Assembly: GCA_023267755.1 (NCBI GenBank)
Contig: JAHFMR010000002.1
Location: 42,463 to 106,462 of the forward strand
Origin: a bacterium
GTDB taxonomy: Bacteria; Patescibacteriota; Minisyncoccia; Phycocordibacterales; Phycocordibacteraceae
DNA length: 64,000 nt
Reading direction: 5' to 3'
In this document: piece after piece, positions 7,456 to 36,544 of the stretch
Position numbering within the stretch: position 1 is the stretch's first letter
How the letters are laid out: each line of letters begins with the position of its first letter
Notes under the pieces: generated by a model
Database searches by the model: none
The model's input: the letters and a program-made list of their open reading frames with translations, nothing else
Told to the model about the DNA's origin: nothing
Position numbers and translations under genes: made by a program

Positions 7456-8643
7456 ATGCGCCGAACACTTATTATTACCGGAATAGTCGTTGTCATCATC
7501 GGAGTCGGGGTCGCTATTTATTTCCTCTTCTTCGCGAAGCCGGCGATTACTGTCCCCGACACGACTCTTCCTTCTGCGGGGCAGGGGACCCTCCCTTCGG
7601 GGAGCGCTTCGGACGCTACAGCCCCCCAGAGCGGCCCCAAGGCCGTTACTGCGCGCTTGGTTAAGATTAGTGCTGGCCCGGTCGTCCCGGGCGAGGCGGT
7701 CGTTGATAAACGCGGATCCACTGCGAGCTCATCGCCTGAGGTTGTGGTCAATTACATCGAGCGCCAGAGTGGTAATGTCTTTATCTACTCTGAGACTACC
7801 CGGACACTCACTCGCGTCTCCAACAAAACACTCCCGGGTATCCAGTCCGCCGCGTGGCTCTCCGATGGCTCGGCGGCGCTGGTGCGGTATCTCTCGGGCG
7901 CGGACTCCTCCACGATAAACACTTACGCACTCTTCGCGACAAGCTCAGACGGGTTTTTCTTATCCCAAAACCTTACCGATGTCGCTGTCTCTTCGACAAA
8001 CATCCTGACGCTCGCCTCTGGTGTGAACGGTTCTGTCGCCTCACTCTCGAACAAAGACGGTTCCCATTCGGTCTCCATCTTCACTTCGCCGCTCTCTGCC
8101 CTCCGGCTCTCGTATGCGGGGAAGGATCATTATCTCGCTTTCACCAAGCCTTCAAATGCTCTTGCCGGTGGCGCATTTCTTGTTGATACCGCTGGGAATT
8201 TTTCCCGTGTCGGTGGCGCCCACAACGGTCTTGTCGCGCTTGCGAGTCCGAGCGGCAAATGGGTTCTTATCAGCTCGGCCCGCGGAGGCACGATGCAGCT
8301 GGAACTGGTAGACACTACTACCAGTGAGAGTATTGCTCTCCCGGTCGCCACTATCGCGGATAAATGCGTGTGGGCTACTGATGATTCGGCCATCTACTGT
8401 GGTGTTCCGACAACGTCTCCCGCTGGCGCTGTGTATCCTGATGACTGGTATCAGGGTGCGGTGCACTTCTCTGATCGTATCTGGAAGATTCAGGTCGCCG
8501 GCCGCTATGCACAGCTCGTGCTCGATTTTCCAAAGGAGGCCAAGGATGTGTTGGATGCCTGGGCACTTGCGCTCGACCCATCAGAGACGACGCTCGTCTT
8601 TGTTAATAAGAATGATGGCTCTCTCTGGAGCTATTCTCTATAG
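7456..8643 (+). CDS. Hypothetical membrane-anchored extracytoplasmic protein, probably a beta-propeller-like fold
   Basis: It has a single N-terminal TM anchor and a long Ser/Thr/Gly-rich ectodomain. It is the last gene of the co-directional block downstream of virB4. Confidence 0.5.
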   Translation: MRRTLIITGIVVVIIGVGVAIYFLFFAKPAITVPDTTLPSAGQGTLPSGSASDATAPQSGPKAVTARLVKISAGPVVPGEAVVDKRGSTASSSPEVVVNYIERQSGNVFIYSETTRTLTRVSNKTLPGIQSAAWLSDGSAALVRYLSGADSSTINTYALFATSSDGFFLSQNLTDVAVSSTNILTLASGVNGSVASLSNKDGSHSVSIFTSPLSALRLSYAGKDHYLAFTKPSNALAGGAFLVDTAGNFSRVGGAHNGLVALASPSGKWVLISSARGGTMQLELVDTTTSESIALPVATIADKCVWATDDSAIYCGVPTTSPAGAVYPDDWYQGAVHFSDRIWKIQVAGRYAQLVLDFPKEAKDVLDAWALALDPSETTLVFVNKNDGSLWSYSL

Positions 8644-9366
8644 GCCGTCCGTGACAAGCCGGCGGCGGACATAGAGCTCTTGCAGTGAACCGGCAAGGTT
8701 CGTGGTGATAAAGTAGAGCGCGATAGCACTCGAGGTGGTGTAGGAAATAGTTCCGATGAGGAAGGGAAATACATATTTCAGCTGCATTCCCATCACTTTC
8801 TGAAAATCGTTCTGAACTCCTTTTGTGTCCGAAGGCTTCATCGTACCTGAGAGCGAGAGGTGTGCCTGGAGGAATTGGGTGAGGCCCGCAATAACCGCAA
8901 GAATAAGGCTCTTTCCGGCGACCGAGAGAATCCCGAGGAATTCGAGCGACACGAGATGTGGAAGGGGTGTGGCTGTATAGAGCCGGGCGGTATTGATAGT
9001 CGAGAATGGCTCGTAGAGGAAGACAAAATAGAGCGCGAGGAGGACGGGGATCTGGATAAATGCCGAGAGAATACTGACAAACGGGTTCACCTGCGCTTCG
9101 CGGTAGAGATCGAGTGTCTCGAGCGCTTCTTTTTCCTTATCACCCTTATGCTTCTCTTTCAGTTCTTTTATCTTGGGCTCCAGTATCTTTATCGCTCGTT
9201 GAGTGCGTGCTGCAGAGAGTGAGAAAGGGAGCAGAATGAGCCTGATGATTATCGTGAGGATGATAACCGCGACTCCCACATCGCCCCCGGGGACGAGCGC
9301 GACGAGCGCGACGAGCGTGTTATAGATCGGGTTATAAAAAAAGGAGTTGAAGAGAGAAGAGATCAC
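8638..9366 (-). CDS. yidC: Membrane protein insertase YidC (short form)
   Basis: It has a YidC/Oxa1-like core with conserved TM helices and the LYREAQVNPF and IQIPVLLALYFVF motifs. It lies immediately downstream of rnpA in the canonical origin arrangement. Confidence 0.85.
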   Translation of the reverse strand: MISSLFNSFFYNPIYNTLVALVALVPGGDVGVAVIILTIIIRLILLPFSLSAARTQRAIKILEPKIKELKEKHKGDKEKEALETLDLYREAQVNPFVSILSAFIQIPVLLALYFVFLYEPFSTINTARLYTATPLPHLVSLEFLGILSVAGKSLILAVIAGLTQFLQAHLSLSGTMKPSDTKGVQNDFQKVMGMQLKYVFPFLIGTISYTTSSAIALYFITTNLAGSLQELYVRRRLVTDGL

Positions 9367-9383: not shown

Positions 9384-9695
9384 TTAACGAATTTTAGAAA
9401 GAATATCGGCGAGTTCTGCTTGTATATCCTGATAAGACATCCGTGCAACGGTCGCGCGCGGGAAGAGGATAAGGGCGGCAGGGAGAAGTGGAGTAGCACG
9501 GAGTACTGAGAGAATCTGGCGTTTTATCCTGTGCCGTGTCACCGAAAGCCGCGCAATCTTCTTGGGCACCACTACCGCGTACCCCGTAGCTGCTGCGGGG
9601 ATGATGGCCGTAAAATTGGCTGAGGAGAGTCGCTTCCCCGCAGAGAGCGCCGCAGGGAAGGATGCTCGAGAAAATCTTCTCCGACGAGGAAACAC
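9384..9695 (-). CDS. rnpA: Ribonuclease P protein component
   Basis: It is a basic protein carrying a RnpA-type RNR-like motif (VTRHRIKRQILSVLR). It is positioned between rpmH and yidC. Confidence 0.8.
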   Translation of the reverse strand: MFPRRRRFSRASFPAALSAGKRLSSANFTAIIPAAATGYAVVVPKKIARLSVTRHRIKRQILSVLRATPLLPAALILFPRATVARMSYQDIQAELADILSKIR

Positions 9696-9701
9696 AGTAC
9701 C

Positions 9702-9845
9702 CTAGACGGACGTTGTAAGACTCTTTCGTCCGACACGCCGACGGCCCTGGACAATCTTGCGGCCAGAGGCTGTTTTGCTCCGAGTAAGGAAGCCGTGCGT
9801 CTTAGCACGCTTCCTTTTCTTCGGCTGATAGGTCATTTTCGCCAT
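9702..9845 (-). CDS. rpmH: 50S ribosomal protein L34
   Basis: Hand translation of the minus strand gives [47 protein letters not shown], the canonical L34 sequence. At 47 aa it is below the ORF-track cutoff and so not listed there. Confidence 0.9.
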
Positions 9846-9943
9846 ACTGAATGCAAATTAGGTTATACCCATGATACTAACAGGTTCTCCCCGAAACACC
9901 ACCCTGTCTTGTTTTAGTGTAAAAGCGTATACTCCAGAATATT

Positions 9944-11293
9944 ATGGACAAAGGGAATCCGAAGGAATTGTGGGAATACATTCTTACTCAGGTTGAACTC
10001 TCTGTTTCTCCAGCAAACTTCAATACATGGTTCCGAAACAGCTTCATCGTAAAGATTGAAGATGGAGTTATCTATGTCGGCGTGCCGAGTCAATTCTTCA
10101 AAGACTGGTACCTTAAGAAGTTCCACACACTCCTTCTAAAGATTGTCCGTGATATTTCTTATGAGTTCCGCAATATTGAGTATCTCATTGTGAAGGATGA
10201 ACGCCGTAAGGTGCAGAAGGAGGTAAAAAACACTCGTGGCGTACTCGAACTTCCGCTTGATGAGTTTTATATCAACAAAAGCGATAGTCTAAACCCACGT
10301 TACACCTTCGACACGTTCGTCATTGGTTCCTTTAATAATCTCGCTTATGCAGCAGCGCAGGCGGTGCTTACGCGTCCTGGTATCACCTATAACCCTCTCT
10401 TTATTTACGGTGACACGGGGCGCGGCAAGACCCATTTAATTCAAGCTATTGGTAATCAGTATAAGAAACAATATCCAGGGCGTAAGGCGTTTTATCTGAC
10501 TTCAGAGAAGTTTACAATCGACTACACTGACTCGGTTCAGGCCGGTACGGCAAACCGTTTTAAAGATAAATATCGTCAGTATGATCTGCTTATTATGGAT
10601 GATGTGCAGTTCCTATCGAAGAAACTAAAGACTGAGGAGGAGCTCTTCCATCTCTTTAACACACTTCACGACACTAATAAGCAGATTATTTTCTCCTCTG
10701 ATCGTGCGCCTGCGGCTATTCCTGATATAGCCGACCGCCTGAAGGGGCGCCTCGCGAGTGGTATGACCATAGATATCGGCGAACCCGATCCTGAATCCCG
10801 TATGGCGATAGTGAAGAGGAAAGCTGCTTCTCACGGGGTGATGCTCTCTGATGAAGTGGTTGAGTATGTCGCCACTACTATGAGTGGTTCTATTCGTGAA
10901 CTTGAGGGTATGGTGAATAATCTTATCTGTCACGCACAAGTAAAAGGTTTTGCGCCGGATATTCTTGAAGTTCGTCAGTCACTCCGATCATTTACCCGCC
11001 CCCAGAAGACTATTTCTGTAAAAAATGTCGTTGATAAGGTTGCTTCTTTTTATGGTATTGATGAAGAGAGTATTTATGAGAAGACTCGTAGAAGGGAGGT
11101 GGTGCGCCCGCGCCAAGTAATTATGTACATCCTTCGAGAAGATTTTAATATTTCATATCCCACTATTGGAACAAAACTTGGTGGTCGTGATCACACGACT
11201 GTTATCCACTCCTGTGAAAAAATAAAACGTGAAGTAGTTGTTGATACTGATCTCGCAAAAGAAATTCAGAATATTCGCACTCTTCTTGTATGA
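9944..11293 (+). CDS. dnaA: Chromosomal replication initiator DnaA
   Basis: The AAA+ Walker A GDTGRGKTHL and Walker B LLIMDDVQF motifs are present, together with a C-terminal DnaA-box-binding HTH domain (IGTKLGGRDHTTVIHSCEKI). Confidence 0.95.
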   Translation: MDKGNPKELWEYILTQVELSVSPANFNTWFRNSFIVKIEDGVIYVGVPSQFFKDWYLKKFHTLLLKIVRDISYEFRNIEYLIVKDERRKVQKEVKNTRGVLELPLDEFYINKSDSLNPRYTFDTFVIGSFNNLAYAAAQAVLTRPGITYNPLFIYGDTGRGKTHLIQAIGNQYKKQYPGRKAFYLTSEKFTIDYTDSVQAGTANRFKDKYRQYDLLIMDDVQFLSKKLKTEEELFHLFNTLHDTNKQIIFSSDRAPAAIPDIADRLKGRLASGMTIDIGEPDPESRMAIVKRKAASHGVMLSDEVVEYVATTMSGSIRELEGMVNNLICHAQVKGFAPDILEVRQSLRSFTRPQKTISVKNVVDKVASFYGIDEESIYEKTRRREVVRPRQVIMYILREDFNISYPTIGTKLGGRDHTTVIHSCEKIKREVVVDTDLAKEIQNIRTLLV

Positions 11294-11405
11294 CTTCTTT
11301 CAACGTATTGTACACAGGTTATCTTTTTGAAAAGAGTAAAAATAATCAATATATACAAGCATTTTTTGACCTATCCCCACTATCCACTATACTAATAAGC
11401 ATCGT
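11294..11405. promoter_or_regulatory. Candidate oriC segment (dnaA-dnaN spacer) with an AT-rich unwinding stretch and degenerate DnaA boxes
   Basis: The AT-rich run aaaagagtaaaaataatcaatatatacaag is followed by ctATCCCCActATCCACTa, two 7/9 matches to TTATCCACA. The spacer sits between dnaA and dnaN. Confidence 0.5.
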
Positions 11406-12506
11406 ATGATTATTTCTTTAGATAAAAAAATATTCTCTGAAGCAGTGCATACTGTTGCTCGTTTTGCAGAGCGGAAGAGTGGAACACTTCCTGTACTCTC
11501 ATCCATCCTTATTCTTGCTGGAGATGAAGGAATTAAATTACGTGCAACAAATCTTGAAACAGGTATTGATTTAAAACTCGAAGGAACCTGTACTACAAAA
11601 GGAGTAGTTGCTGTCCCCGCAGTAGTCTTACAACAAATTGCTGGATCACTCACAAATGAGGGGAGTATTACTCTTGAACACACTGGAGATATTCTTTCAC
11701 TCTCAAGCGGCACAGGGAAAAGTTCAATAAAAACAATTCCTTACGATGATTTCCCCTCAATTCCATTCCCAGAAAATCCAAAAAATAGAATCATCCTCCC
11801 GGGAATCATTTTAAAAAACCTCTTCACCACTATCGCCTCCTGCGCTTCCTCCTCAACTATCCGCCCAGAACTCTCAAGTATCTATCTTTCTATTGAAGGA
11901 GGAGTATTAACAGCTGTTGCAACAGACTCATTCAGGCTCGCAGAAAAGAAAGTTCCCCTCACTAATAAAGGGACACAAGGAAAATTCCTTATTCCCGCGA
12001 AGAATGCACTCGATATAGCGCAAGCACTTCCAGATGACGATATTATTATTTCATTTGATGAGCACCAATGCGCTTTTGTGAGTCAGGGTGGTATGCTCGT
12101 TTCGCGTCTTACGAACGCAACCTACCCCGACTACCGGCAAATAATTCCAAAAGAGTCTGTTGTTGAAGCGGTAATACTTAGGAAAGATTTTGAGACCGCA
12201 CTAAAACGAACAACTATCTTCTCAGATGCATTCCAGAAAATACGTATCAGCTTCGATCAGAAGAAGAATAAATTTATATTATTCGCGCGAAATACTGATA
12301 TTGGAGAATCCACCGAGACAATCTCTGCAAACATATCTGGAACTGCACTCGACCTCTCGTTTAATCACCGGTATCTCTCAGCGGTGCTCGCACTTACTAA
12401 TGCCGAGAGTCTCTCGCTTCTTGCTGCGGGTATCGGCCGCCCACTTATCATCAAGGGTGTTGGAGACACCTCACTCCTCTACCTCGTTTCACCGATGAAT
12501 CAGTAG
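11406..12506 (+). CDS. dnaN: DNA polymerase III beta sliding clamp
   Basis: It is 366 aa, has a three-domain clamp pattern and lies immediately after dnaA. Confidence 0.9.
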   Translation: MIISLDKKIFSEAVHTVARFAERKSGTLPVLSSILILAGDEGIKLRATNLETGIDLKLEGTCTTKGVVAVPAVVLQQIAGSLTNEGSITLEHTGDILSLSSGTGKSSIKTIPYDDFPSIPFPENPKNRIILPGIILKNLFTTIASCASSSTIRPELSSIYLSIEGGVLTAVATDSFRLAEKKVPLTNKGTQGKFLIPAKNALDIAQALPDDDIIISFDEHQCAFVSQGGMLVSRLTNATYPDYRQIIPKESVVEAVILRKDFETALKRTTIFSDAFQKIRISFDQKKNKFILFARNTDIGESTETISANISGTALDLSFNHRYLSAVLALTNAESLSLLAAGIGRPLIIKGVGDTSLLYLVSPMNQ

Positions 12507-12508
12507 AG

Positions 12509-14677
12509 TTACGGTGCTGTAGTTGAAACAGAAGAGAGCGGTACGGGGAGTAATGGGCCACCAATAAAGAGTTCAGGATGAGTGGTATACCAAAACTGCA
12601 CACCATATTCCCAGTACGCATACTGGGGATCTTGTGCGGGATTTGTCGGCGGGGCCCCTTGGGGGTTATTTTTATCCGTCCAGTAGAGGAGATCGTGTGG
12701 GGCGATAGTTCCTATTGCGTCTGGAATACGCCATTCACCACGAAGCATTGGGGGTACCCCAGAAGAGATAGAATCAGGCTCTCCGAAATAAGCTTCTGGA
12801 TATTTTGAAAGTGCGTAGGCCATTACCTCGTGCCACATCGGCACGGCTATGAAACCAGCAATCGTCTTCACCATTGGTGTATTGTCGTTATTACCAACCC
12901 AGACGCCTATGGCGATAGAAGGGGTATAGCCGACCGTCCAAGCATCACGAGTATCGTTGGTCGTACCCGTCTTAACCGCGACATCATAGCCAGGGAAGGA
13001 CATTGGTGAGTTGAGTGCATACTCTGGAACACGCGCAGGAGCGTCGGAGAGCATTGCTGACATATCGCGCGCAATGTTGCTTGGCAACACTTGGGAAGGA
13101 TTTGCCGCATATGACTGGAGGGTGGCACCCGCAGCACCCTTCACTTCAAGGATACCTGTCGGGGTGTTGAGAACACCGTCATTTGCGAATACTGAGTAGG
13201 CCCCTGTGAGATCAAGGAGGCGCACTTCGCCGCCGCCGAGCACGAGTGTGAGGCCATATTGGTTCGGATCGCCAAGAGTTGAAAGGCCGAACGACTTAGC
13301 AAGATTGATGGCTTGTTGGATGCCGACGAGGTAGAGCACTTTCACTGCGGGGACGTTGATTGATTGGGCGAGTGCGGTCTCAAAGGTCATTGGGCCGCGG
13401 TAGGTGTTATCAAAGTTCCCAGGAGAGTAGCAGGGCGGTGTGGTCCCCACTTTATTATTAATGTCAGAAGGTTTGCAGGCGGTCGAGAATTGCGTTGGAG
13501 TGTCAAAGACAATGGTGTCGCGTGTGTAGCCCTTCATAAGAGCGAGGGAGTAGATGAAGGGTTTCATCGTCGAGCCCGGCTGGCGAGACGCGAGAGTTGC
13601 ATTGTACTGGCCGTCAATATCTTTATCAAAGAAGTTGCGTGATCCGACCATCGCGAGAATCTGGCCAGTCGCAGGATCAAGCGCGATCAGCGAGGCGTTG
13701 GTCGCGTTGAAATTCTTCACATTCTGGAGGGCGTAGGTATTTAAGATTGATTCTGCCTTCACCTCAAGATCAGCGTCGAGTGTGGTGATTACACGAAGGC
13801 CCGACGTCAGTGCCTGGGAGCCATACGCGTTCTCAAGTTGACCAAGAATATAGAACACGAAATGTGGTGCGATGATAGAGTTCTGGCCCGCAGGAGCAAA
13901 CGAGACTTGCTCTGTCTTCGCACTCGCAAAGGCGGCGTCATCGATAAAACCGAGCTTATGCATACGCTCAATAACAAGATCCTTACGGGTGTCGAGTGCA
14001 GCACGGTTCGCGCCGTATGGGGAGTAGAAGGAGGGGGCTTGGATCATCGCGGCGAGGTAGGAAGCTTGTGCAATCGAGAGATCCTTGGCCGGTCGTCCGA
14101 AATAAGATTCAGCTGCCGCTTCAATCCCATAGAGCGTCCCACCGTAAGGGATATTGTTTAAATAAGATTCTAGAATCTGCTCCTTTGAGTACATCTGCTC
14201 GAGTTTAATCGCCAAGACCCATTCATTAATTTTACGAACGAAACTCTTCTGATTGGTGAGGAGCTCATTCTTCACCACCTGCTGGGTAATCGTCGAGCCA
14301 CCCTGCGAGAGGGAACCAGCAAGGATATTAATGAAGATAGAACGGAAGATAGAGGTAAGACGGATACCGCCGTGTTCATAAAAACTCGAATCCTCGATAG
14401 CGATAGTGGCGTTAATCGTATTTGGAGAGATGTCTGAGATAGGAACGATACTCCGCTTCGTGTCGCGATTATAGTCATAAAGCAGGACTTGCCCGGTGCG
14501 GTCGTAAATCTTGGTCGATTGATCGACCTGGCGAGCAGCAAAGGAATGAATATCTGGAACGGGGGTGAGTGCGACAGCAATAAGGAGGCTTCCCGCCGCG
14601 AGGAAACCTACTCCACACACAAGAAAAAACAGTATGAGGAGCTTATGTCTCCATAAGACCGTCTGACGAGAAGTCAT
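12509..14677 (-). CDS. mrcA: Class A penicillin-binding protein (PBP1A; transglycosylase + transpeptidase)
   Basis: It carries the GT51 motifs EDSSFYEHGG and GGSTITQQ, an N-terminal TM anchor and a C-terminal transpeptidase domain. Confidence 0.9.
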   Translation of the reverse strand: MTSRQTVLWRHKLLILFFLVCGVGFLAAGSLLIAVALTPVPDIHSFAARQVDQSTKIYDRTGQVLLYDYNRDTKRSIVPISDISPNTINATIAIEDSSFYEHGGIRLTSIFRSIFINILAGSLSQGGSTITQQVVKNELLTNQKSFVRKINEWVLAIKLEQMYSKEQILESYLNNIPYGGTLYGIEAAAESYFGRPAKDLSIAQASYLAAMIQAPSFYSPYGANRAALDTRKDLVIERMHKLGFIDDAAFASAKTEQVSFAPAGQNSIIAPHFVFYILGQLENAYGSQALTSGLRVITTLDADLEVKAESILNTYALQNVKNFNATNASLIALDPATGQILAMVGSRNFFDKDIDGQYNATLASRQPGSTMKPFIYSLALMKGYTRDTIVFDTPTQFSTACKPSDINNKVGTTPPCYSPGNFDNTYRGPMTFETALAQSINVPAVKVLYLVGIQQAINLAKSFGLSTLGDPNQYGLTLVLGGGEVRLLDLTGAYSVFANDGVLNTPTGILEVKGAAGATLQSYAANPSQVLPSNIARDMSAMLSDAPARVPEYALNSPMSFPGYDVAVKTGTTNDTRDAWTVGYTPSIAIGVWVGNNDNTPMVKTIAGFIAVPMWHEVMAYALSKYPEAYFGEPDSISSGVPPMLRGEWRIPDAIGTIAPHDLLYWTDKNNPQGAPPTNPAQDPQYAYWEYGVQFWYTTHPELFIGGPLLPVPLSSVSTTAP

Positions 14678-14890: not shown

Positions 14891-15367
14891 TTAGTGAGCA
14901 GGAAGACCGAACGCAAGCGCTGTGATGCCCACCGCAATCGCGTCGAGTTCGTCATCAAGGCGTTTCTTCGGGGGGAGAGGTAGGAGGCGCGGAATCATCA
15001 GCGCAATAGCGGCTTTATCAGAGCCGCCGTGGCCGGTGACCGCGAGTTTTATCTGTTGTGGAGAGCACTCGATGATGGGTAGGGAAGCGAGACCAGCAGC
15101 TGCGAGGATAGCGCCGCGTGCCTCAGCGACACCGATGGCCGTCTTCTTGTTGATACTGAAGAAGAGCGTCTCGAGAGCAACAGCATCAGGGGTATACGTT
15201 GCTATCGCACCAGTGACGGCACGAGATACGTGAGCAAGGCGCACCTCACGAGCGCCTTTCTCCGGCTGGACACAATCACTCATCAGAAGTGTCGGGCGCG
15301 AGGGGTCTCCCTCGATGACTGCGATACCGAGTCTGTCGTAGCCCGGGTCAATCGCCAGTATTCTCAT
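14891..15367 (-). CDS. ruvC: Crossover junction endodeoxyribonuclease RuvC
   Basis: MRILAIDPGYDRLGIAV has the catalytic-Asp N-terminus and is RNase H-fold RuvC-like. The start is taken at an internal Met, giving a 20-nt overlap with yebC. Confidence 0.85.
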   Translation of the reverse strand: MRILAIDPGYDRLGIAVIEGDPSRPTLLMSDCVQPEKGAREVRLAHVSRAVTGAIATYTPDAVALETLFFSINKKTAIGVAEARGAILAAAGLASLPIIECSPQQIKLAVTGHGGSDKAAIALMIPRLLPLPPKKRLDDELDAIAVGITALAFGLPAH

Positions 15368-15917
15368 CGTCGGTGCTCTCATAGCCACGCGCATTGGTGA
15401 ACACCTGTTGGACGTCTTCGTGTTCGTCGAGCATCTCGAGGAGCGCGCCAAGCTTCTCCTCATCAGCACCCGAGACGTCGGTGAGCGGCTCGTTCGGGAT
15501 ATATCTCGCACCGACCTTAGTGAAGGCCCAGGTAGCAGAACCAGGAGCGGCAACCTCGAGACCTTGTTTAGCAAACAAGTGTTTAATCTCGGGAGTCGTA
15601 CGGTTCTTGTTGTCAGTCAGAGCATCGATGATAACAGCGACACCCGCGGGGCCGTAGGCTTCATAGACGATTTGCTCGAGATTACCAGAATCTTTTGACG
15701 CCCCTTTGGCGATGGCACGCTCGATGTTCTCCTTGGGCATATTAGCGGCCTTAGCACGCGCAATAGCGGCAGTAAGACCAGGGGCCGTAAGAATACCGTT
15801 TGCCTTCTTCGACTCGAGAGCGACGAGTCGCGCGAAACGTGAGAAGACACGGCTGCGTGCCGCGTCAGTGACGCCCTTCTGTCGCTTAATCTGTGACCAT
15901 TTACTGTGACCGGACAT
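15348..15917 (-). CDS. yebC: YebC/PmpR family DNA-binding transcriptional regulator
   Basis: MSGHSKWSQIKRQKG is the canonical YebC start. It lies upstream of ruvC, as in many bacteria. Confidence 0.9.
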   Translation of the reverse strand: MSGHSKWSQIKRQKGVTDAARSRVFSRFARLVALESKKANGILTAPGLTAAIARAKAANMPKENIERAIAKGASKDSGNLEQIVYEAYGPAGVAVIIDALTDNKNRTTPEIKHLFAKQGLEVAAPGSATWAFTKVGARYIPNEPLTDVSGADEEKLGALLEMLDEHEDVQQVFTNARGYESTDDENTGD

Positions 15918-15996
15918 ATGGGAACTATAGCAAAACCTGATTACAAACTGAAATAACTACTGTATCAGTAAGAGTGGGGTACAATAGAGATGCGTT

Positions 15997-16551
15997 ATGC
16001 AAAGAAACAAGCTCGTCATCGCGCTCGCCCTCACCACTGCCGTCTCAGCGTCTATTATGATGATCTCTGTCGCCTGGCGAGCTGGCTATGCTGATGGTTT
16101 CGTAAAGGGTGCTTCAGCGAAGCAACCACAAGGTCAGACACCAGCAGAAGTGAAAACTATCGTGGGGAAGATCAGTGGTATTACTGGTACGACAGTCACG
16201 ATACAAACATATATCACCGGATCAGCGAAACCTGTTACCTACCAGATTGGTACCAATTCTAGTACCACGTTTGAGCGGATGATACAAAAAGACCAGAAGA
16301 CATACCAAGCCGAACAAGTCACCTTTAGTGCGAAACTGAAAACAGCAAGGGCAAATGGTACTGTGACTCCTCTTGGTCCGATTCCTCCCGCCCCATTTAC
16401 TTTGCAAAAGAGTTCTCTAATCAATCTTCGTATAGGGGATGTTATTTTAACGATAATGCCTAGAAATACTCCAGCATCAGAGACACCTGTTGCGACAAGG
16501 ATACTTTTTGAGACTTTTCCTCAAACAGCGTCCTCATCACCACTACAATAG
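15997..16551 (+). CDS. Hypothetical membrane-anchored protein
   Basis: It has an N-terminal TM/signal segment and a Thr/Gly-rich ectodomain. A TACAAT -10 element lies 16 nt upstream. Confidence 0.5.
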   Translation: MQRNKLVIALALTTAVSASIMMISVAWRAGYADGFVKGASAKQPQGQTPAEVKTIVGKISGITGTTVTIQTYITGSAKPVTYQIGTNSSTTFERMIQKDQKTYQAEQVTFSAKLKTARANGTVTPLGPIPPAPFTLQKSSLINLRIGDVILTIMPRNTPASETPVATRILFETFPQTASSSPLQ

Positions 16552-16570
16552 ACATGCTGGAAAGCTTTGT

Positions 16571-18211
16571 ATGAAAAAGCGAAACATCCTCCTGATTTCA
16601 ATTTTCGCGGGAGTTGGGATGTTCTCTCCGATACCAGTCGATGCCCAGGCAGGGAATTGTTCTACCCTATATCTCACTCTCACTACCAATACTCAGAACT
16701 ATAGCGTCTATACTGCCGCTGTAGCGGCGGGTTGGAATTACGGCATGCAGGTCGTGCTCACAATAAACAGCGGCGTGTATGTATGGTCTGACAGTACGTA
16801 TCTCCCAGCGCTTGATACTTGGGGATTCCCAGAGAACACCGGCCTGACTATCATCAACAATGGGTACATCATTGGTAAGGGTGGAGATGGCGGGGGTTAC
16901 TTCTATATAGTCCCGCTTATTTATGGCCAGAATGGAGGGGACGCTATGTTCGTTACTATTCCAGTGACTATAGACAGTTCGCAAGGGTATATTGCAGGCG
17001 GGGGCGGTGGTGGTGGCTCTGGCGGTGGTGGTGGCGGTGGCGGCGCTGGTGGCGGTACTGGGGGTACTGCCGGGGGAGCGTATTATTTGGTTAGTGGTGG
17101 TATTGGGGGTAGTGTTGGAAATATAGGAAATGATGGAATAGGAGACAGAGAATTAATACCATCGGGTTTAGGCGGCGGTGCCGGAGGAGGAGGAGGAGCA
17201 TTTGGCGGTGGTTTTGGTAGTGCAAGTGGCGGTGGTGGCGGGAGAATACTCCCGGGAGTCGGTGGTAGCGGAGGTCGTGGTAATGCTGGCGGTTCTGGAG
17301 GTAATCCAGGTCTCCAAACTACTAGTGGTTATGGTGGTGATGGTGGTGGCGGTGGTGGCGGTTGGGGAGCTGTGGGGGGTGCAGGATACGCTAGCACAAT
17401 TGCGGGTGGGCAAGGGGGTAGGGCAATTAATACAAACGGCAATTTAATTACTTGGATCGGCGGACTCCCGGCCGGGCACGTGTTCGGTGATATCTTGCCG
17501 GCCCCAACTCAAACACAATCCGTGATCTGTTGCGCTCCAAACTCAGGCACGTTCTGCTCCGTCTCAAATGCGTGTGGTCAGGCTAATTACGGCATTACTC
17601 AATGTGACGGCTCCTGTTCCGCTTTCACTCTCCCAAATCCTTATGGGTATGGCACCTCCTGCACCTCCTCTCCCAACATCTGTGGACAGGCCAATACAGG
17701 AATCATTGATTGTGGTGGGACGTGTACCGCAACCGTGCCCGCTCTACCATCTAACTATGGCAATCTCTGCACTTCCGCTACGAATGCTTGTGGGAATAAT
17801 GTCGGAACAGTCAGTTGTGACGGAACGTGCTCGGCAACTGCACCATTCGTACCATCTAACTACAACACCCCCTGCACCCTTACTTCAGCAGCTAACGGCT
17901 GCGGTATGACCAACACGGCAACAGGCACCTACAACTGCTCTGGTGTCTGTGGTGTTGCCGCTCCCGCTACTCCCGCCAACTCCCTCTGCACCCCTCCTCC
18001 CGCTCCCACTATCTCCGGTCCTTATCAGAACGGACCATCCCTCATCAACCCCGCTTATGCCTATGATCCTCTCGGCTACCAAGTCTTCGCTCAGGCCACG
18101 AGCCCCTATGCCACTAATCCCGCAGTGGATTCGCATCTCACCTACTACTTCGAGTATTCTACCGATGGAGTGAACTGGACGAGAGGGGAGTGGGCGTCGC
18201 GAGTGAAGTAG
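16571..18211 (+). CDS. Secreted glycine-rich protein with four tandem Cys-rich repeats (putative surface/adhesin protein)
   Basis: It has a signal peptide (MKKRNILLISIFAGVGMFSPIPVDAQA), poly-Gly tracts of about 145 aa and four repeats of about 36 aa of the form C-x5-CGQAN-x-G-x3-C-x-G-x-C-x-A-x6-NYG. Confidence 0.7.
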   Translation: MKKRNILLISIFAGVGMFSPIPVDAQAGNCSTLYLTLTTNTQNYSVYTAAVAAGWNYGMQVVLTINSGVYVWSDSTYLPALDTWGFPENTGLTIINNGYIIGKGGDGGGYFYIVPLIYGQNGGDAMFVTIPVTIDSSQGYIAGGGGGGGSGGGGGGGGAGGGTGGTAGGAYYLVSGGIGGSVGNIGNDGIGDRELIPSGLGGGAGGGGGAFGGGFGSASGGGGGRILPGVGGSGGRGNAGGSGGNPGLQTTSGYGGDGGGGGGGWGAVGGAGYASTIAGGQGGRAINTNGNLITWIGGLPAGHVFGDILPAPTQTQSVICCAPNSGTFCSVSNACGQANYGITQCDGSCSAFTLPNPYGYGTSCTSSPNICGQANTGIIDCGGTCTATVPALPSNYGNLCTSATNACGNNVGTVSCDGTCSATAPFVPSNYNTPCTLTSAANGCGMTNTATGTYNCSGVCGVAAPATPANSLCTPPPAPTISGPYQNGPSLINPAYAYDPLGYQVFAQATSPYATNPAVDSHLTYYFEYSTDGVNWTRGEWASRVK

Positions 18212-18261
18212 TAGATGGCTGGCTAATGCTGCAGATACCCACGCCGTGTTAAGATTTTTCC

Positions 18262-18756
18262 ATGCAAAAGCCTCTCACGAATCACGCATATATAGATGGT
18301 GCGAATCTCCACAACGCGATGAGCGATCTCGGTTGGCGTCTTGATTACCAGAGACTGCACATCCTGCTCAAAGAAAAATACGGTGTTAAACAAGCGTACC
18401 TCTTCATCGGGCTCATACCGAAATACAAAGGATTATATGCGTATCTGCAGGAATGTGGCTTTATCCTTGTCTTCAAAGAAGTTACTTATGACGGAACAGG
18501 GAAGCCGAAAGGAAATTGCGATGCCGACCTGGTGTTGTATGCGATGCGGGATGCGTATGAAAAGAAGATGGAACGTGCGGTTCTCGTATCGAGCGATGGA
18601 GATTATGCAGAGCTCGTGAAGTTCCTCTGTGACCGCGGTCAATTCGCGACTATCTTATCGCCGAGTAAAAAGGAGAAATGCTCTCTGTTATTGAAGAGGA
18701 CGAATGCACCTATAGCTTATATCGCTGATAAACGGACAGTTCTCGAGCTGAAATGA
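18262..18756 (+). CDS. NYN-domain (LabA-like) putative RNase
   Basis: YIDGANLHN...DLGW is followed by the acidic residues typical of a PIN-like NYN fold (SSDGDY). Confidence 0.65.
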   Translation: MQKPLTNHAYIDGANLHNAMSDLGWRLDYQRLHILLKEKYGVKQAYLFIGLIPKYKGLYAYLQECGFILVFKEVTYDGTGKPKGNCDADLVLYAMRDAYEKKMERAVLVSSDGDYAELVKFLCDRGQFATILSPSKKEKCSLLLKRTNAPIAYIADKRTVLELK

Positions 18757-18855
18757 AAAAGCCCCCGGTAGAGACGGAACTCTACAGGGGTCTTCTTCGT
18801 GGTGATTAGTTTCAGTATAGCAAGATTGACTCAGGGCGCAACAATTGTGCAAGAA

Positions 18856-29179: not shown

Positions 29180-29253
29180 ATTTTTTATGTGCGCCCGGAT
29201 GGATTTGAACCATCGACCCACGGCTTAAAAGGCCGCTGCTCTACCAGACTGAG
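29180..29253 (-). tRNA. tRNA-Lys (anticodon TTT)
   Basis: The hand-folded cloverleaf has a gcgcccg/cgggcgc acceptor stem, a cttttaa anticodon loop and a ggttcaaatcc T-arm. Confidence 0.85.
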
Positions 29254-29381
29254 CTACGGGCGCGAGTGAGGAAAAGAGAATGAGTGGCCTCAGTCATTCT
29301 CTTTCTCCGAACGAGCGCACAGTATGGTAGTCCATACGGGCGCGCTCATTTTCGTAATCTACTCTTTTTGTACCGTTTTTC

Positions 29382-30329
29382 CTAGTAGCTGAACGCATCC
29401 ACTGTGTTCCCTTGGGTATCGAGAAGCTTCACCAATTCATGTTTAGTGCGCCACATCGAGTTGGATCGGCCGAGATACACGCGCCACGTGGCGCTCTCAA
29501 AATCGGAATCGCTCCTGTGTGCCTCGACACACCCGTTGTAATTTAAGTACTTAATCAAAAAGCTCTGGCACACGCCTGAGATAGTAGGAGGCGGAGAGAG
29601 CACGACCTGACAGCGGGAGAGCTTGTCGACGTAGTCGATGCAAACCGCGTCACGGATATAGCCGGTGCCGTAGTCGGTCACGAGTTCACTTGCGGGGGTA
29701 GGGCAGTTCTGCGGGAGAGAGGGAGTAAATGTTTGGAATGTGCTGAAATAACCGATGCACTTATTCTCACGGAAGGATGCCCCGATGGGGGATTGGCCCG
29801 AGACAATAATCGCACGTTCGCCAGGAGTAAGTACGATGTCCTGGGCCGCGTTCACCACACCGCTCGTTGGTACCTCGGTTCCCTTCGGGATGACAACCGC
29901 ATTGCCGGTTGCGTCACTTGAGAGCGTCCATCCGGAAATATCAACCGGTGCGCTTGCGCTTAAGGCGACAGAAATCTCCACGTATTCGTTCTTTGGGTTC
30001 AGAGAGCCCGCGCCCGCGACATAGTGGTTCATCGAGATGAGTCCGCGATACGGAGAAGGAGTCCCGAAAGTACTTCCTCCGACGAACGTGGGGAGGCTCG
30101 AGCCACTGCCGCTGTTCGATGAGCCTGATGAGATTGAGACACCAGAACCGCCAATACCAAAGGGCGCACGCGGGAAGTTAAGATACGTGCCGCCGCCAAG
30201 CACATCGGGAGCAGCGAGCCGTGGACCAGCAAAAGCGAGAGGATGGAGCGGGCCGCCCATCGCCGCCCAGACAAGAAAGATGAAAACGAAGATGCCTATG
30301 AAGAACCACGCATCGTGCATATCACTCAT
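29382..30329 (-). CDS. Membrane-anchored protein with a lamin-tail-domain (LTD)-like region
   Basis: An N-terminal TM and a Gly/Ser-rich linker are followed by NEYVEISVALSASAPVDISGWTL, which resembles the LTD motif (EYVEL.N....VDLSGW.L). The C-terminal region contains 6 Cys. Confidence 0.55.
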   Translation of the reverse strand: MSDMHDAWFFIGIFVFIFLVWAAMGGPLHPLAFAGPRLAAPDVLGGGTYLNFPRAPFGIGGSGVSISSGSSNSGSGSSLPTFVGGSTFGTPSPYRGLISMNHYVAGAGSLNPKNEYVEISVALSASAPVDISGWTLSSDATGNAVVIPKGTEVPTSGVVNAAQDIVLTPGERAIIVSGQSPIGASFRENKCIGYFSTFQTFTPSLPQNCPTPASELVTDYGTGYIRDAVCIDYVDKLSRCQVVLSPPPTISGVCQSFLIKYLNYNGCVEAHRSDSDFESATWRVYLGRSNSMWRTKHELVKLLDTQGNTVDAFSY

Positions 30330-30360
30330 AGGGGAATAGTAGCAAATTTACACGGAGTGG

Positions 30361-30906
30361 TCAGTGATGAGACGAGAGGGAGGCCTTCAAGCGGGCATCC
30401 TTACCCTGAACACTGTCGGGGATAGCCTGGAGCGCCTTACGCGCCTCGCGCTCGGTGTAGCCGAGTGCGACGAGCGTGTCGAAGACTTCGCCATCGGCGT
30501 CGTCGTGTGCAGCAGGGCCAACTTTCTCAGATAATTCAACCAGCATCTTCTCAGCGCTCTTCTTTCCCAGTCCGACAATCTTGGTCAGATAATTCAGATC
30601 GCGCTTGCTGATGGCACCTTCAAGCGCGGCGCGCGGCGCGCGACGTAGCACCGAGAGAGCAGTCTTGGGCCCCACACCCGAGACCGAGAGCATAAGCTCG
30701 AAGAAGTCGCGATCGGCCACCTCGCTGAAGCCGTAGAGTTCCATCCCGTCCTGTTTGACCGCGAGATGCGTGGCGAGGGTCGCATTGGTGCCCATCGAGA
30801 GCGCTTGAGGCGCACTCATCCGTACCTCGATACCGAAGCCAGCAACCTCGATGACTGCCCCTACCGGAGTTATCGAGAGCACCTTTCCGCTAATCTGTCG
30901 GATCAT
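30361..30906 (-). CDS. ruvA: Holliday junction DNA helicase subunit RuvA
   Basis: MIRQISGKV is the OB-fold start, followed by HhH motifs (LSVSGVGPKTA) and C-terminal domain III. The start is at an internal Met of a longer ORF. Confidence 0.85.
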   Translation of the reverse strand: MIRQISGKVLSITPVGAVIEVAGFGIEVRMSAPQALSMGTNATLATHLAVKQDGMELYGFSEVADRDFFELMLSVSGVGPKTALSVLRRAPRAALEGAISKRDLNYLTKIVGLGKKSAEKMLVELSEKVGPAAHDDADGEVFDTLVALGYTEREARKALQAIPDSVQGKDARLKASLSSHH

Positions 30907-30961
30907 GGCGCTATAGTACCATTTGCCACAGGACGGGAGATACGGTATATAGAGAAGACAT

Positions 30962-31231
30962 ATGGCAATCACCAGTTCCGCAAAGAAGGCTATCCGCGTA
31001 GCGCAGAAGAAGCGCGTGTTTAACTTGCGTCGCAAGGGAGCTCTCTCCACTACGACCAAGACGCTCACCAAGGCGCTCGCGGCGAAGGATGTGAAGGAAG
31101 CAGAAAAGCTCCTCCCGGCGGCCTATAAGGCAATCGACAAGGCGATGAAGCGCGGTGTGATCAAGAAGAACACAGCAGCACGCAAGAAGTCTCGTCTCGC
31201 TCTCTCCATCAAACGCGCTTCGGCGAAGTAA
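30962..31231 (+). CDS. rpsT: 30S ribosomal protein S20
   Basis: MAITSSAKKAIRVAQKKRVFNLRRK is a basic helical S20 pattern. Confidence 0.85.
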   Translation: MAITSSAKKAIRVAQKKRVFNLRRKGALSTTTKTLTKALAAKDVKEAEKLLPAAYKAIDKAMKRGVIKKNTAARKKSRLALSIKRASAK

Positions 31232-31239
31232 TCTACTTG

Positions 31240-31311
31240 TGCTCCCACGAGGAATCGAACCTCGATCTCAGGCTTCGGAGGCCTACGCTCTATCCGTTGA
31301 GCTATGGGAGC
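31240..31311 (-). tRNA. tRNA-Arg (anticodon CCG)
   Basis: The cloverleaf has a gctccca/tgggagc acceptor stem, a ctccgaa anticodon loop and a T-arm cgagg-ttcgatt-cctcg. Confidence 0.8.
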
Positions 31312-31334
31312 AGTACAAAAACGATATCACCAAT

Positions 31335-32018
31335 TTAATGCCTCTGCTCAATTCGCGACGCAATCTCATGTCCGAGGGCAATCATTTCCCGTTGGATGAC
31401 ATTGGAAGAGTAATGCAGATTGCAGATGCCGTAAAAGTTTTTGCGGTAGCTTTTTCTGCGCCCGCTACGAGGTTTCAGATAAATTTTCCAAAACTGCGAA
31501 GCAGGAACCTTAAGTTTTTCAGACCAATATTCGCGCACTTCTTCGGGATTGTGGTAGTAATGGATTTGTAAACCGACGCGGAAGCGTGTTTCATCGATAG
31601 AATAATGCTTGCGTAACAGGGCGATAAACAAGCAGACAAGTTTTGGGTCCGTGTTCGTGAATTTCATATTATTATCTGTTTTGCCACCTTCTCCCCAGTA
31701 GAGCATCGCGAGTAGAGATTTCCCGACATCTTCCCGGTGCACAGGGATGGAGTTAGCGAGCTTTTTTGCGGTACGGTTGGCTGTCTCGAAGCGCAATTCT
31801 TTATTACGCCGTATGACGATAAGAGCGGCCGCACGAGCTTTCTTTAAATGTGCGATTTGTCGAGAACGATCTGGCTTTCTTCCGGCCTGACTCGACCAGA
31901 CGGAAAGAGTACTTTTCGGAATACCAAGAGCTTTCTTGATTTCAGCGTAAGTTTTTCCATTTTCAATTAACTTCAGTGCCTTCTTTTTAATCTCCTCGGA
32001 ATATCGTGCTCCTGCCAT
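31335..32018 (-). CDS. HTH-domain protein with a LAGLIDADG-like motif (putative homing-endonuclease-like protein)
   Basis: It has an N-terminal HTH (KKALKLIENGKTYAEIKKALGIPKSTL). A single LAGLIDADG-like motif KSLLAMLYWGEGGK is followed by the helical segment NTDPKLVCLFIALLRKHY. It is flanked on both sides by tRNA-Arg genes. Confidence 0.5.
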   Translation of the reverse strand: MAGARYSEEIKKKALKLIENGKTYAEIKKALGIPKSTLSVWSSQAGRKPDRSRQIAHLKKARAAALIVIRRNKELRFETANRTAKKLANSIPVHREDVGKSLLAMLYWGEGGKTDNNMKFTNTDPKLVCLFIALLRKHYSIDETRFRVGLQIHYYHNPEEVREYWSEKLKVPASQFWKIYLKPRSGRRKSYRKNFYGICNLHYSSNVIQREMIALGHEIASRIEQRH

Positions 32019-32128
32019 AAATCCATTGTATAAGATTTATGTGCCGTGAGTATATAGCTACGTTCAATATTGTGGATATCAGTAGAATTACTGAACGATG
32101 AGAGCAGTGCTCTCTTTATACTACCTTG

Positions 32129-32200
32129 TGCCCCCGCGAGGAATCGAACCTCGATTACGAACTCCGCAAGCTCGCGTCCTATCCGTTGAACGACGGGGGC
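32129..32200 (-). tRNA. tRNA-Arg (anticodon reads GCG, unusual for bacteria)
   Basis: The cloverleaf has a gcccccg/cgggggc acceptor stem and a ttgcgga anticodon loop. Its D-loop (aacggata) and T-arm are identical to those of the tRNA-Arg(CCG) 0.9 kb away. Confidence 0.65.
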
Positions 32201-32215
32201 AATAGAGAATGTATA

Positions 32216-32689
32216 TCAGAACCCGAGCCAAGCCGCCACCAGGTCAGAGAAGGAATGGTGGTGTTCGTCCTCGTCGACGTGCTGGAGGAAGTAGGTGTAG
32301 ACCAAATCTTCATCGACATCGTTCAGTGGGATGATGAGATGTGGTGAGAGCCAACTCATCGTTTTAATAGAAATTATTGAAGGGAGTTCACCCTCAACAT
32401 CTTCGAGTACTGAGAAGGACAGCATACGTTCAAAGGGGTGGAACTCGTCGCCGATAAGGATCCCAGTTTCTATGAGCCGGAAGCGGTGAACAGAAGGTTC
32501 TTTGGCGGCGTGGAGCGCGAGTGCCGCCGTTGCGACGACGATAAGGACAGCGAGGAGATAATTACCGAAGAGAATCGAAGCGATGATGCCCGCAATAGCG
32601 ATGATGCCGAGTGCCCAATACCAATCACCGCTCTTCGGGTTGTAGTCGTATTCCTTTCCTTCCCACTCCGCGAGAGTGTTGTTAGCCAT
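32216..32689 (-). CDS. Hypothetical membrane protein
   Basis: It has two N-terminal TM helices and an acidic C-terminal domain (DEDEHHH). Confidence 0.45.
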   Translation of the reverse strand: MANNTLAEWEGKEYDYNPKSGDWYWALGIIAIAGIIASILFGNYLLAVLIVVATAALALHAAKEPSVHRFRLIETGILIGDEFHPFERMLSFSVLEDVEGELPSIISIKTMSWLSPHLIIPLNDVDEDLVYTYFLQHVDEDEHHHSFSDLVAAWLGF

Positions 32690-32749
32690 AGGTCAATAAT
32701 AACAGAACGCACGCAGCACCTCTCTCATTACTTCGGCTCGTGTGTACAA

Positions 32750-32834
32750 GCGGATGGGGTGAGATTCGAACTCACGACACCTTGCGGTGTGGCGGTTTTC
32801 AAGACCGCTGCCTTAGACCACTCGGCCACCCATC
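32750..32834 (-). tRNA. tRNA-Ser (anticodon TGA)
   Basis: It has a long variable arm, a ggatggg/cccatcc acceptor stem and a cttgaaa anticodon loop. Confidence 0.8.
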
Positions 32835-32843
32835 CTCAATGTC

Positions 32844-33113
32844 CTATACCTGTGTTGATGAGCTTACCGCAGGTGCTTGAGGAGAGGAAGGGCGATACCA
32901 GATGAGGTACACGACTTCGAGGATGCCGAGTGTATTGACGGTGAGCAGGGTGATGAACCACCACTTCTGACTGTTGCGCGCCGCGTTCCAGAGCGCATAG
33001 CCTTTAACAACTACGACGAAGAGCACGAGGATAGCGATAAACGGAGCAAACGGAATAAGTTTATCGAGAAGGTCTGGAGCAAACGGGGAATAATAGGGTG
33101 CGGATGGTTGCAT
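32844..33113 (-). CDS. Hypothetical small membrane protein
   Basis: The 89-aa ORF has two TM helices. Confidence 0.4.
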   Translation of the reverse strand: MQPSAPYYSPFAPDLLDKLIPFAPFIAILVLFVVVVKGYALWNAARNSQKWWFITLLTVNTLGILEVVYLIWYRPSSPQAPAVSSSTQV

Positions 33114-33143
33114 ATGTCGTGATTATACCACACACTCTTTACT

Positions 33144-33557
33144 ATGCGGTATCTCGGTATTGATTATGGCAGTTCGAAAATCGGTCTTGCGCTTTCTGAT
33201 GAGGCGGGCTCGATGGGATTTCCGCACGCTATTGTGACGAATACGCCGCGGCTCGCGGGCGAGCTGTGTGCCCTTATCGCGAGAGAGGGTGTTGGCGCGA
33301 TAGTTATCGGGGAATCGCGCGACCTTGCCGGCGGCGAAAATGCGATTGCAAAGGATGCTCGTGCGCTCGGCACCGAGCTCGCAGCGAGATCAGGAGCGCC
33401 AGTCTTCTATGAATCAGAAATATTTACGACTGCCGAGGCGCGTCGCGCCCCAGAGAAGGAAGGGAAGTCGAGATCTCCCAAGTCGCGTGCGCCGGTAGAC
33501 GCCTCTGCCGCCGCACTCATTCTTACCAGCTATCTCTCACGCACGCACCATGGATAA
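33144..33557 (+). CDS. ruvX: Putative pre-16S rRNA nuclease / Holliday junction resolvase-like YqgF (RuvX)
   Basis: MRYLGIDYGSSKIGLALSD is the YqgF/RuvX RNase H-like N-terminus. Confidence 0.85.
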   Translation: MRYLGIDYGSSKIGLALSDEAGSMGFPHAIVTNTPRLAGELCALIAREGVGAIVIGESRDLAGGENAIAKDARALGTELAARSGAPVFYESEIFTTAEARRAPEKEGKSRSPKSRAPVDASAAALILTSYLSRTHHG

Positions 33558-33891: not shown

Positions 33892-33939
33892 GTCGAGCGA
33901 CACGACGAAGCTTCGGCGAAGGGGAGGTATACTTGAAGT

Positions 33940-36416: not shown

Positions 36417-36450
36417 AGGCGCGAATACGCTAGGGTAATAAGGTGCGAGC

Positions 36451-36522
36451 GCCTCGGTAGTTCAATGGATAGAACTGCGGACTTCTAAGCCGTCGATGTT
36501 GGTTCGATTCCAACCCGGGGCA
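36451..36522 (+). tRNA. tRNA-Arg (anticodon TCT)
   Basis: It has a gcctcgg/ccggggc acceptor stem, a cttctaa anticodon loop and a T-loop ttcgatt. There is one A-G mismatch at the base of the anticodon stem. Confidence 0.7.
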
Positions 36523-36544
36523 CAGCTGGCGAGAGCGAGCGGCA

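Follow-up and report, generated by a model that had tools for sequence, protein, structure and literature searches.

In a window of 64,000 nucleotides (nt) from a Candidatus Kaiserbacteria (Patescibacteria/Candidate Phyla Radiation, CPR) bacterium (assembly GCA_023267755.1, contig JAHFMR010000002.1, positions 42,463 to 106,462), we identified an open reading frame (ORF) whose product is, in our judgement, probably a secreted and cell-surface-associated adhesin with a phage-type binding head. The ORF occupies 16571–18211 on the (+) strand and encodes 546 aa plus a stop codon from an ATG start. The original prediction for this DNA had proposed a secreted, modular protein with an adhesin role; a signal peptide and distinct modules were indeed found, and adhesion is still the best reading. 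The roles of the parts, however, are likely the reverse of those first proposed, with the Gly-rich region serving as the binding head and the Cys-rich repeats as the stalk. What is new here is a head of the type found in the phage adhesin gp38 that has neither the attachment domain nor the tail-fibre gene context by which the phage family is defined, and that is fused to an uncharacterised repeat and C-terminal domain.

The head comprises aa 28–312 (16652–17506, + strand) and was recognised from structure prediction, Foldseek, profile searches against the PDB and PHROG matches. Using an alignment of 104 head homologues (A1), which are 41–55% identical to the head, AlphaFold2 (AF2) modelled it with a mean predicted local distance difference test (pLDDT) score of 89.6 and a predicted template modelling score of 0.86. 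In the model, aa ~28–140 and 286–312 form the rungs of a beta-helix that enclose a Gly-rich lattice, and a single short helix (aa 46–52) lies ahead of the beta-helix. The Gly-rich motifs and variable loops span aa 102–285 (16874–17425, + strand), contain 87 Gly and are predicted to form a polyglycine-II sandwich. A ‘near-pure’ Gly tract had been described at 16994–17425, which corresponds to aa 142–285; the region is there, although at 53% Gly (aa 141–285), with runs of 5–8 Gly beginning at aa 143, 151, 205, 220 and 258, it is rich rather than near-pure. It had also been taken for a flexible stalk following a separate globular segment of ~110 aa. Neither description survived modelling: the Gly-rich part is predicted to be compact, with pLDDT of 88–98 that falls to 76 only in a 10-residue block (aa 251–260), and the preceding segment is continuous with it, both matching the beta-helix and sandwich of gp38. 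On the strength of the model, aa 28–312, including the Gly-rich region, is one folded gp38-type domain.

When the head model was compared with the PDB by Foldseek, there were three significant matches, all to gp38 adhesins and all with probability 1.00. Two were to gp38 of phage PP01 (9V85; E 5e-7 for 9v85_C, and 4e-6) and one was to gp38 of phage S16 (6f45_D, E 4e-5). Target-normalised template modelling (TM) scores were 0.58–0.65 for 9v85_C and 6f45_D, and 0.35 for 9v85_A, a chain fused to green fluorescent protein. The A1 profile likewise found S16 gp38 (6F45_D) as its top PDB match, at E 4.6e-4 and over the Gly-rich region of that structure, and the head matched phrog_10745 (1.6e-16) and the tail-fibre family phrog_11439 (1e-7). 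A search for relatives with the protein returned 1128 matches, of which 120 were listed, most of these being 300–350 aa long. Pfam PF05268 is the precomputed annotation of P0001, the NCBI copy of our protein, and of most of the 120 listed relatives, and two relatives just exceed the 25-bit Pfam cutoff for GP38 (P0007 at 25.3 bits and P0102 at 27.3 bits). The original prediction, in which no known domain was recognised, stands on this point for the C-terminal half and fails for the gp38-like N-terminal half.

Published descriptions divide gp38 into an attachment domain, a beta-helix and a sandwich of polyglycine-II helices; the core of the sandwich is built from conserved Gly-rich motifs, and the receptor is bound by its hypervariable loops (PMC6851490, PMC12032242, PMC12892980). 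The beta-helix with its polyglycine-II sandwich is present in the modelled head, and the alternation of conserved Gly motifs with hypervariable segments is present in its family. A per-column profile of conservation and indels over the 104 homologues showed about eight conserved Gly motifs, in which the Gly columns are invariant or nearly so, alternating with about seven variable, indel-rich segments (aa ~110–118, 148–153, 166–174, 190–199, 209–217, 248–257 and 272–277). The conserved motifs of the head are GVYxWSD, NNGYIxGKGG, YIAGGGGGG, GGGGGRILPG (GGGGGRxxPG across the family), GGGGWGA and NGN..TW. This pattern also bears on the suggestion that the Gly tract may be prone to length variation. 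No such variation was observed: the tract has the same length in two assemblies, and the Gly-coding DNA uses mixed Gly codons, the longest perfect triplet tract being 16 nt. Homologues do, however, differ by indels between motifs. Two other features of gp38 were not found: a signal peptide occupies the place of the N-terminal domain by which gp38 caps the gp37 trimer, and the locus offers no phage context beside a gene 37.

We found that the ~330-aa relatives of the head are phage tail-fibre tip genes. P0018 lies directly 3′ of a 1301-aa gene on a 157-kb contig that has T4 gp13, neck, gp15 and gp53-like genes, and P0102 sits among T4 gp59, gp32 and baseplate genes; the long gene beside these relatives is presumably gp37-like. 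Most of the 104 aligned proteins carry an N-terminal extension of ~60–95 aa (‘MALxxSGxISL...FYG’) and no signal peptide. The nearest relatives all have a signal peptide: P0006, which is 55% identical and has cellular genes around it, P0008 and P0031. A neighbour-joining tree placed them in one clade with our protein, followed outward by one protein from Oligoflexia and another whose signal is Tat-like. Because a signal peptide replaces the phage extension and the protein falls in a clade of signal-peptide-bearing relatives, its head is a cellular offshoot of a mainly phage family and not a stray phage gene. A prophage tail-fibre gene was considered and rejected, there being no phage neighbours and a signal peptide being present. 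A tblastn search of the head against GenBank phages gave no match, which we do not take as absence since the low-complexity filter is the likely cause. What follows the head differs even among its closest cellular relatives: only our protein and copies nearly identical to it join this head to the Cys-repeat stalk, an Ig-like region and a hydrophobic tail follow it in P0006, and P0008 has a precomputed match to PF07705 (CARDB). Elsewhere, gp38-like heads with Tat-like or other export signals occur in bacteria outside the CPR (P0007, P0024, P0074 and P0114), and the metagenome-assembled genome that encodes P0007 belongs to the Oligoflexia, a predatory group. Bacteria that live by attaching to other cells may therefore use gp38-like heads more widely.

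Export of the protein and its fold are supported by sequence and by prediction. Residues 1–27 (16571–16651, + strand) read as a Sec-type signal peptide with predicted cleavage after VDAQA; on inspection the N-terminus, MKKRNILLISIFAGVGMFSPIPVDAQA followed by G, has the n-, h- and c-regions and the AxA site of such a peptide, and AF2 assigned this stretch a pLDDT of about 50. The ATG lies 19 nt past the stop of the preceding gene. An alternative start, a TTG at 16490 upstream of this ATG, would overlap the preceding gene and abolish the signal peptide, and the ATG was preferred for these reasons. P0001 (NCBI, called from M17) has the identical sequence. In another, independent assembly (P0274, ENA) the product is again 546 aa long and agrees at 545 of the 546 positions, with no indels. 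The sole difference, L173W, falls inside a variable segment of the head and is one data point only. Since the ORF is undisrupted in two independent assemblies we count it as intact and reject both an assembly artefact and a pseudogene, the latter named in the original prediction as a finding that would count against it. A scan for promoters and terminators gave background-level results only.

Behind the head, a linker with a CC pair (C320, C321; 17507–17545, + strand) leads into four tandem Cys-rich repeats at aa 326–360, 361–396, 397–431 and 432–470 (17546–17980, + strand), delimited by unit alignment and a hidden Markov model (HMM). These repeats and the Pro/Tyr-rich tail after them had been described accurately, coordinates included, except that the number of Cys is exactly four in every unit. 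The period is 35–39 aa, with starts 35–36 aa apart and the last unit longer, and each unit follows C-x5-8-C-x8-11-C-x3-C with an N-x-C-G core and an S-A-x-x-P tail; the commonest spacing in the protein is C-x6-C-x9-C-x3-C and that of the family is C-x6-C-x9-11-C-x3-C. The only Cys outside the units are C30, C320, C321 and C473. The unit HMM scored each copy at 37–46 bits and matched nothing else in the window, which disposed of paralogues there. As these very units went into building the HMM, the scores show regularity and not independence, and independent support for the unit comes from its recurrence in other proteins. A search with the C-terminal half of the protein returned 17 proteins, among which one carries the name Candidatus Moranbacteria and one Candidatus Paceibacterota, and at least 46 units could be extracted from 19 of the 20 proteins examined. 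They define the consensus G-x-x-C-T-S-A-A-N-x-C-G-x-T-N-x-G-T-x-x-C-x-G-x-C-S-A-x-x-P-x-x-P (unit alignments A3 and A4). An exhaustive search with a profile of the repeats and C-terminal domain (A2) found 557 protein clusters at E<=1e-3, and 118 remained at a threshold of E<=1e-30. Some members have many units (>20 in P0138, ~9 in P0145), and others join the repeat to PKD, Ig and cadherin-like domains, an extracellular setting in keeping with the adhesin reading. The CC pair ahead of the first repeat is also seen in P0123, P0125, P0126, P0129, P0130 and P0137, and a single Cys past the last unit recurs in many relatives.

A match of the repeat unit to a characterised family would have spoken against the original prediction, and none was found. 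No Pfam or NCBIfam model matched the repeat, multi-unit proteins included; its profile had no match in the PDB and the best Foldseek E was 3; and comparison with characterised Cys-rich domains (EGF, TSP1, granulin and others) gave no match to a curated family or a solved fold. AF2 modelled the array at pLDDT 90–97, from 20 sequences only. A two-unit profile (A4) scored nothing among 429 candidates, probably through the composition filter, and no viral contig matched the consensus repeat written as a DNA pattern. Matches of the repeats to PF25670 (Phage_tail_C_2) at E 0.02–0.03 were well below the cutoff and were treated as chance. We conclude that the four-Cys repeat of ~36 aa is a genuine family that has no curated name. 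Two features of its relatives may be recorded here. P0123 and P0125 have among their Cys repeats an insert that by eye resembles thrombospondin type 1 (CSGYWSDVSxSCSxTCGxGTLQQTYTRT), for which P0123 has no Pfam match. P0128, P0133, P0134, P0135 and P0181 combine Cys repeats with C-terminal domains that look Ig-like by eye, and share the terminal motif P-x-x-x-E-[FIT]-COOH (PSFIEI, PTYNEF, PKVIEF), which may be an unrecognised sorting or attachment signal.

The protein ends in a Pro-rich linker with C473 and a Tyr-rich C-terminal domain of ~65 aa (17981–18208, + strand), delimited by sequence conservation, with the pattern PTISG...AYDPLGYQ...LTYYFEYSTDGVNW...W. This domain had no Pfam or PDB match, and its alignment (A5) found no relatives in species-representative genomes (GTDB) or viral contigs (IMG/VR); a reading of ‘YYFEYSTDGVNW’ within it as a strand of a GH43-type beta-sandwich was dropped as not significant (E 0.086). 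The domain is common to at least 10 proteins with different N-terminal domains. In P0002, P0017, P0153 and P0170 the same stalk and C-terminal domain stand under a different Gly-rich, phage-tail-like head, which in P0017 matches Pfam PF21722 (Gly_rich_2) as well as PHROG tail-fibre and minor-tail families; the stalk and C-terminal domain of P0002 are 64–68% identical to those of our protein. A PF21722 gene also lies two genes past a gp38-like gene on a phage contig (L002). P0121–P0124 have N-terminal domains that are not Gly-rich on the stalk/C-terminal module. One locus (L001, GCA_038911915.1) has three paralogues (7554–8792, 10001–11653 and 11726–12868) with Cys repeats and the same C-terminal domain; they differ in their N-terminal domains and surround one copy of a partner gene (9445–9996), which suggests a locus of interchangeable heads.

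In our window the partner gene lies immediately upstream (15997–16551, + strand) and is an ORF of 184 aa, whose product is anchored in the membrane at its N-terminus and has an ectodomain rich in beta structure. Homologues stand directly upstream of genes of this type in L001 (9445–9996; 38% identity, E 9e-23 to 1e-27) and L087 (3654–4265; 31% identity, E 1.6e-21), so that the pairing is seen in three loci including our own. A partner homologue precedes P0017, and a 181-aa gene that precedes P0002 is a candidate partner by its position. The sole Pfam signal of the partner family is a weak one to DUF5666, in the L001 copy. Because the partner gene tracks the C-terminal module and not the head, we propose the partner as the anchor.

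We next considered the genomic setting in about 80 species-level metagenome-assembled genomes named Ca. Kaiserbacteria, Paceibacterota or Patescibacteria, whose DnaA is 81–94% identical to that of the window; the organism was assigned on this basis. About 60 of them keep the order dnaA-dnaN-PBP1A-ruvC-yebC-ruvB-pilB, almost always with yebC directly beside ruvB. In our window an accessory insertion of 2.9 kb (15918–18855) separates them and holds the partner gene, the adhesin gene and a gene with an NYN domain, identified by family search (18262–18756). The neighbours of the adhesin gene are accordingly yebC, ruvC, ruvB, the NYN-domain gene and a small membrane protein, and there are no phage structural, integrase or lysis genes in the island or its flanks. 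None of the 80 related loci has a homologue of the adhesin or of its partner gene. Most genomes have nothing between yebC and ruvB and others carry unrelated cargo there, and we conclude that this junction is an insertion hotspot in Ca. Kaiserbacteria. The cassette, lying in such a variable hotspot, is an accessory, strain-specific trait, as expected for a determinant of partner or surface recognition. The cargo, named from translated sequences rather than by family search, includes an IS200/IS605-like transposase with an NYN gene (L046), a HicB-like antitoxin (L078), a 312-aa membrane protein (L042) and a truncated NYN copy 86% identical to window 18262–18756 (L080). In L039 two small toxin-antitoxin-like ORFs lie between dnaN and the PBP gene, not at this junction; L021 and L034 were grouped with these five loci in the survey of the junction.

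Taken together, these features suggest how the protein might work. It would be exported through Sec, its signal peptide removed, and aa 28–312 would fold into a gp38-type head in which Gly-rich motifs extend from a short beta-helix and, as polyglycine-II helices, stack to give a rigid lattice, leaving the non-Gly segments between motifs as exposed loops at the far end. The loops of phage gp38 bind outer-membrane proteins of the target cell, and the variable loops of this head would likewise contact a ligand, for which a protein on the surface of another cell is plausible. The four disulfide-rich repeats could serve as a rigid spacer between head and cell, and the C-terminal domain could keep it attached to the cell, perhaps by way of the 184-aa partner in the membrane. 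In gp38 the beta-helix contains both chain ends, on the side away from the loops that bind the receptor (PMC12032242), and a stalk at the C-terminus would thus point the loops away from the cell. The episymbiotic lifestyle invoked in the original prediction is consistent with the placement in Ca. Kaiserbacteria/Patescibacteria and, for an uncultivated lineage, is something we infer. It is possible, and we put it forward tentatively, that an ultra-small, presumably episymbiotic CPR cell recognises its partner via an enlarged, Sec-exported gp38-type head on a new disulfide-rich stalk tethered by a membrane partner, with interchangeable phage-like heads in a hotspot acting as strain-level determinants of host range.

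Other accounts of the protein have to be weighed against a surface adhesin with a gp38-type head. That the Gly region is instead a flexible spacer projecting Cys-repeat binding modules, in the manner of glycine-rich cell-wall or S-layer-associated proteins, seems to us most improbable. A Gly content of 53% and low-complexity DNA would suit a spacer, and the conserved Cys repeats, present in many copies in large extracellular proteins, could bind; yet the region is predicted to be compact at very high confidence and resembles the polyglycine-II sandwich of gp38 in fold and in profile, the invariance of its Gly positions over homologues this divergent is unexpected for a spacer, and a Gly region at the N-terminus would have nothing to project on its N-terminal side. 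The lack of phage genes in the island and flanks argues against a prophage-derived tail-fibre adhesin serving a virion or tailocin rather than the cell, as do the Sec signal peptide in place of the phage extension, the clustering with signal-peptide-bearing cellular proteins, the fusion to a stalk and C-terminal module that had no match in the viral-contig collection, and a gene that is intact and nearly identical in two assemblies. We therefore regard this origin as very unlikely, even though the family consists mostly of phage genes that occupy the gene-38 position and the hotspot holds mobile elements in other genomes.

Harder to set aside, if still unlikely, is a soluble secreted protein that does not attach one cell to another: its ligand would be non-cellular, such as a polysaccharide, a mineral surface or ice, or it would serve as a decoy masking phage receptors. 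We found no anchoring motif in the protein, and the polyglycine-II fold is not restricted to porin binding: bundles of such helices are also known from snow-flea antifreeze protein and from the part of the ALK/LTK receptors that binds ligand. The polyglycine-II ‘sails’ of PE_PGRS proteins have been proposed to contact membranes (PMC10216338). The closest relatives in structure and sequence are nevertheless specifically receptor-binding adhesins, the co-located membrane-anchored partner and conserved C-terminal domain suggest retention on the cell, and the pattern of variable loops agrees with a role in recognising many different proteins.

Several observations weigh against the adhesin that we favour. 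The query-normalised TM scores of the gp38 matches are only 0.47–0.48, because the lattice is much larger than in the solved gp38 structures. An hmmscan of the protein against Pfam reported no GP38 match even at E<=10; the composition filter is probably responsible, and direct membership of GP38 then rests on the relatives and on precomputed annotation. The neighbour-joining tree has no support values. At the other end of the protein, the C-terminal domain was poorly modelled (pLDDT 37–48), the sequence has no LPXTG motif, lipobox or C-terminal transmembrane segment, and anchoring via the partner is proposed from gene adjacency in only three loci, with P0122 (L088) having no upstream neighbour of the partner type. 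Binding, surface location and ligand are what we infer.

Three further observations on the window concern its other genes. The ruvC ORF as listed (14891–15574, − strand, TTG start, 227 aa) overlaps yebC (15348–15917, − strand) by ~230 nt; conserved RuvC begins MRILAIDPGYD, which places the true start probably near 15364 and would reduce the overlap to ~17 nt. The GC fraction of 10001–12000, over the dnaA/dnaN region, is 0.418 against 0.49–0.58 elsewhere in the window, despite the high identity of DnaA to that of the comparison set. Nine transfer RNA genes lie within ~10 kb at 29190–39453, three of them in tandem at 36451–36702.

How CPR/Patescibacteria find and hold their hosts is largely obscure, and the protein is a concrete, testable candidate for recognition. 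The recent work that a literature search returned on this question centres on type IV pili (PMC12206443). In the best-ranked full-text literature on polyglycine and CPR terms the two never co-occur, which is weak evidence that their combination is undescribed. A tail-fibre protein of phage S16 has been used for Salmonella detection (cited in PMC6851490), and the head described here could similarly serve as a probe for partner cells or receptors. It also adds cellular proteins, and a lattice of much greater size, to the known range of the rare polyglycine-II sandwich fold, and the Cys-rich repeat, given how widespread it is, merits a family model and a structure. For annotation, the lesson is that Gly-rich ‘low-complexity’ regions should not be presumed to be disordered linkers.

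Among known systems, the more distant parallels are flat arrays of polyglycine-II helices. In snow-flea antifreeze protein and the Gly-rich domain of ALK/LTK, such helices pack in flat lattices. PE_PGRS ‘sails’ resemble the head in packing polyglycine-II helices into flat, indel-tolerant lattices of variable size (PMC10216338). Unlike the head, all of these assemblies lack a beta-helix scaffold and the gp38 motif set, and PDB searches with the protein or its head gave no match to PE_PGRS, snow-flea antifreeze or ALK/LTK structures. The Gly_rich_2 proteins (P0002, P0017, P0153 and P0170) share the stalk and C-terminal domain and have a head from a Gly-rich family other than gp38, whereas the cellular proteins P0006, P0008, P0031 and P0007 share the head and the clade and differ in their C-terminal modules. 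T4-like phage proteins of ~300–350 aa (P0013, P0018 and P0102; phrog_10745, phrog_11439 and phrog_2056) are 41–52% identical to our protein over the whole head and share its motifs, but have the N-terminal extension, no signal peptide and no C-terminal stalk, and are encoded in tail-fibre gene clusters. The gp38 tip adhesins of Straboviridae, or T2-type, phages (6F45, 9V85, PF05268) are like the protein in their beta-helix, polyglycine-II helices and alternation of motifs and loops. In contrast to them, it has no fibre-attachment domain, carries a signal peptide, C-terminal Cys repeats and an extra domain, and is encoded on the chromosome beside housekeeping genes rather than past a gene-37 homologue. 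The Gly-rich portion of S16 gp38 comprises 73 residues, 37 of them Gly (PMC6851490); with ~184 residues and 87 Gly, the predicted lattice of the Kaiserbacteria head is roughly 2.5 times as large.

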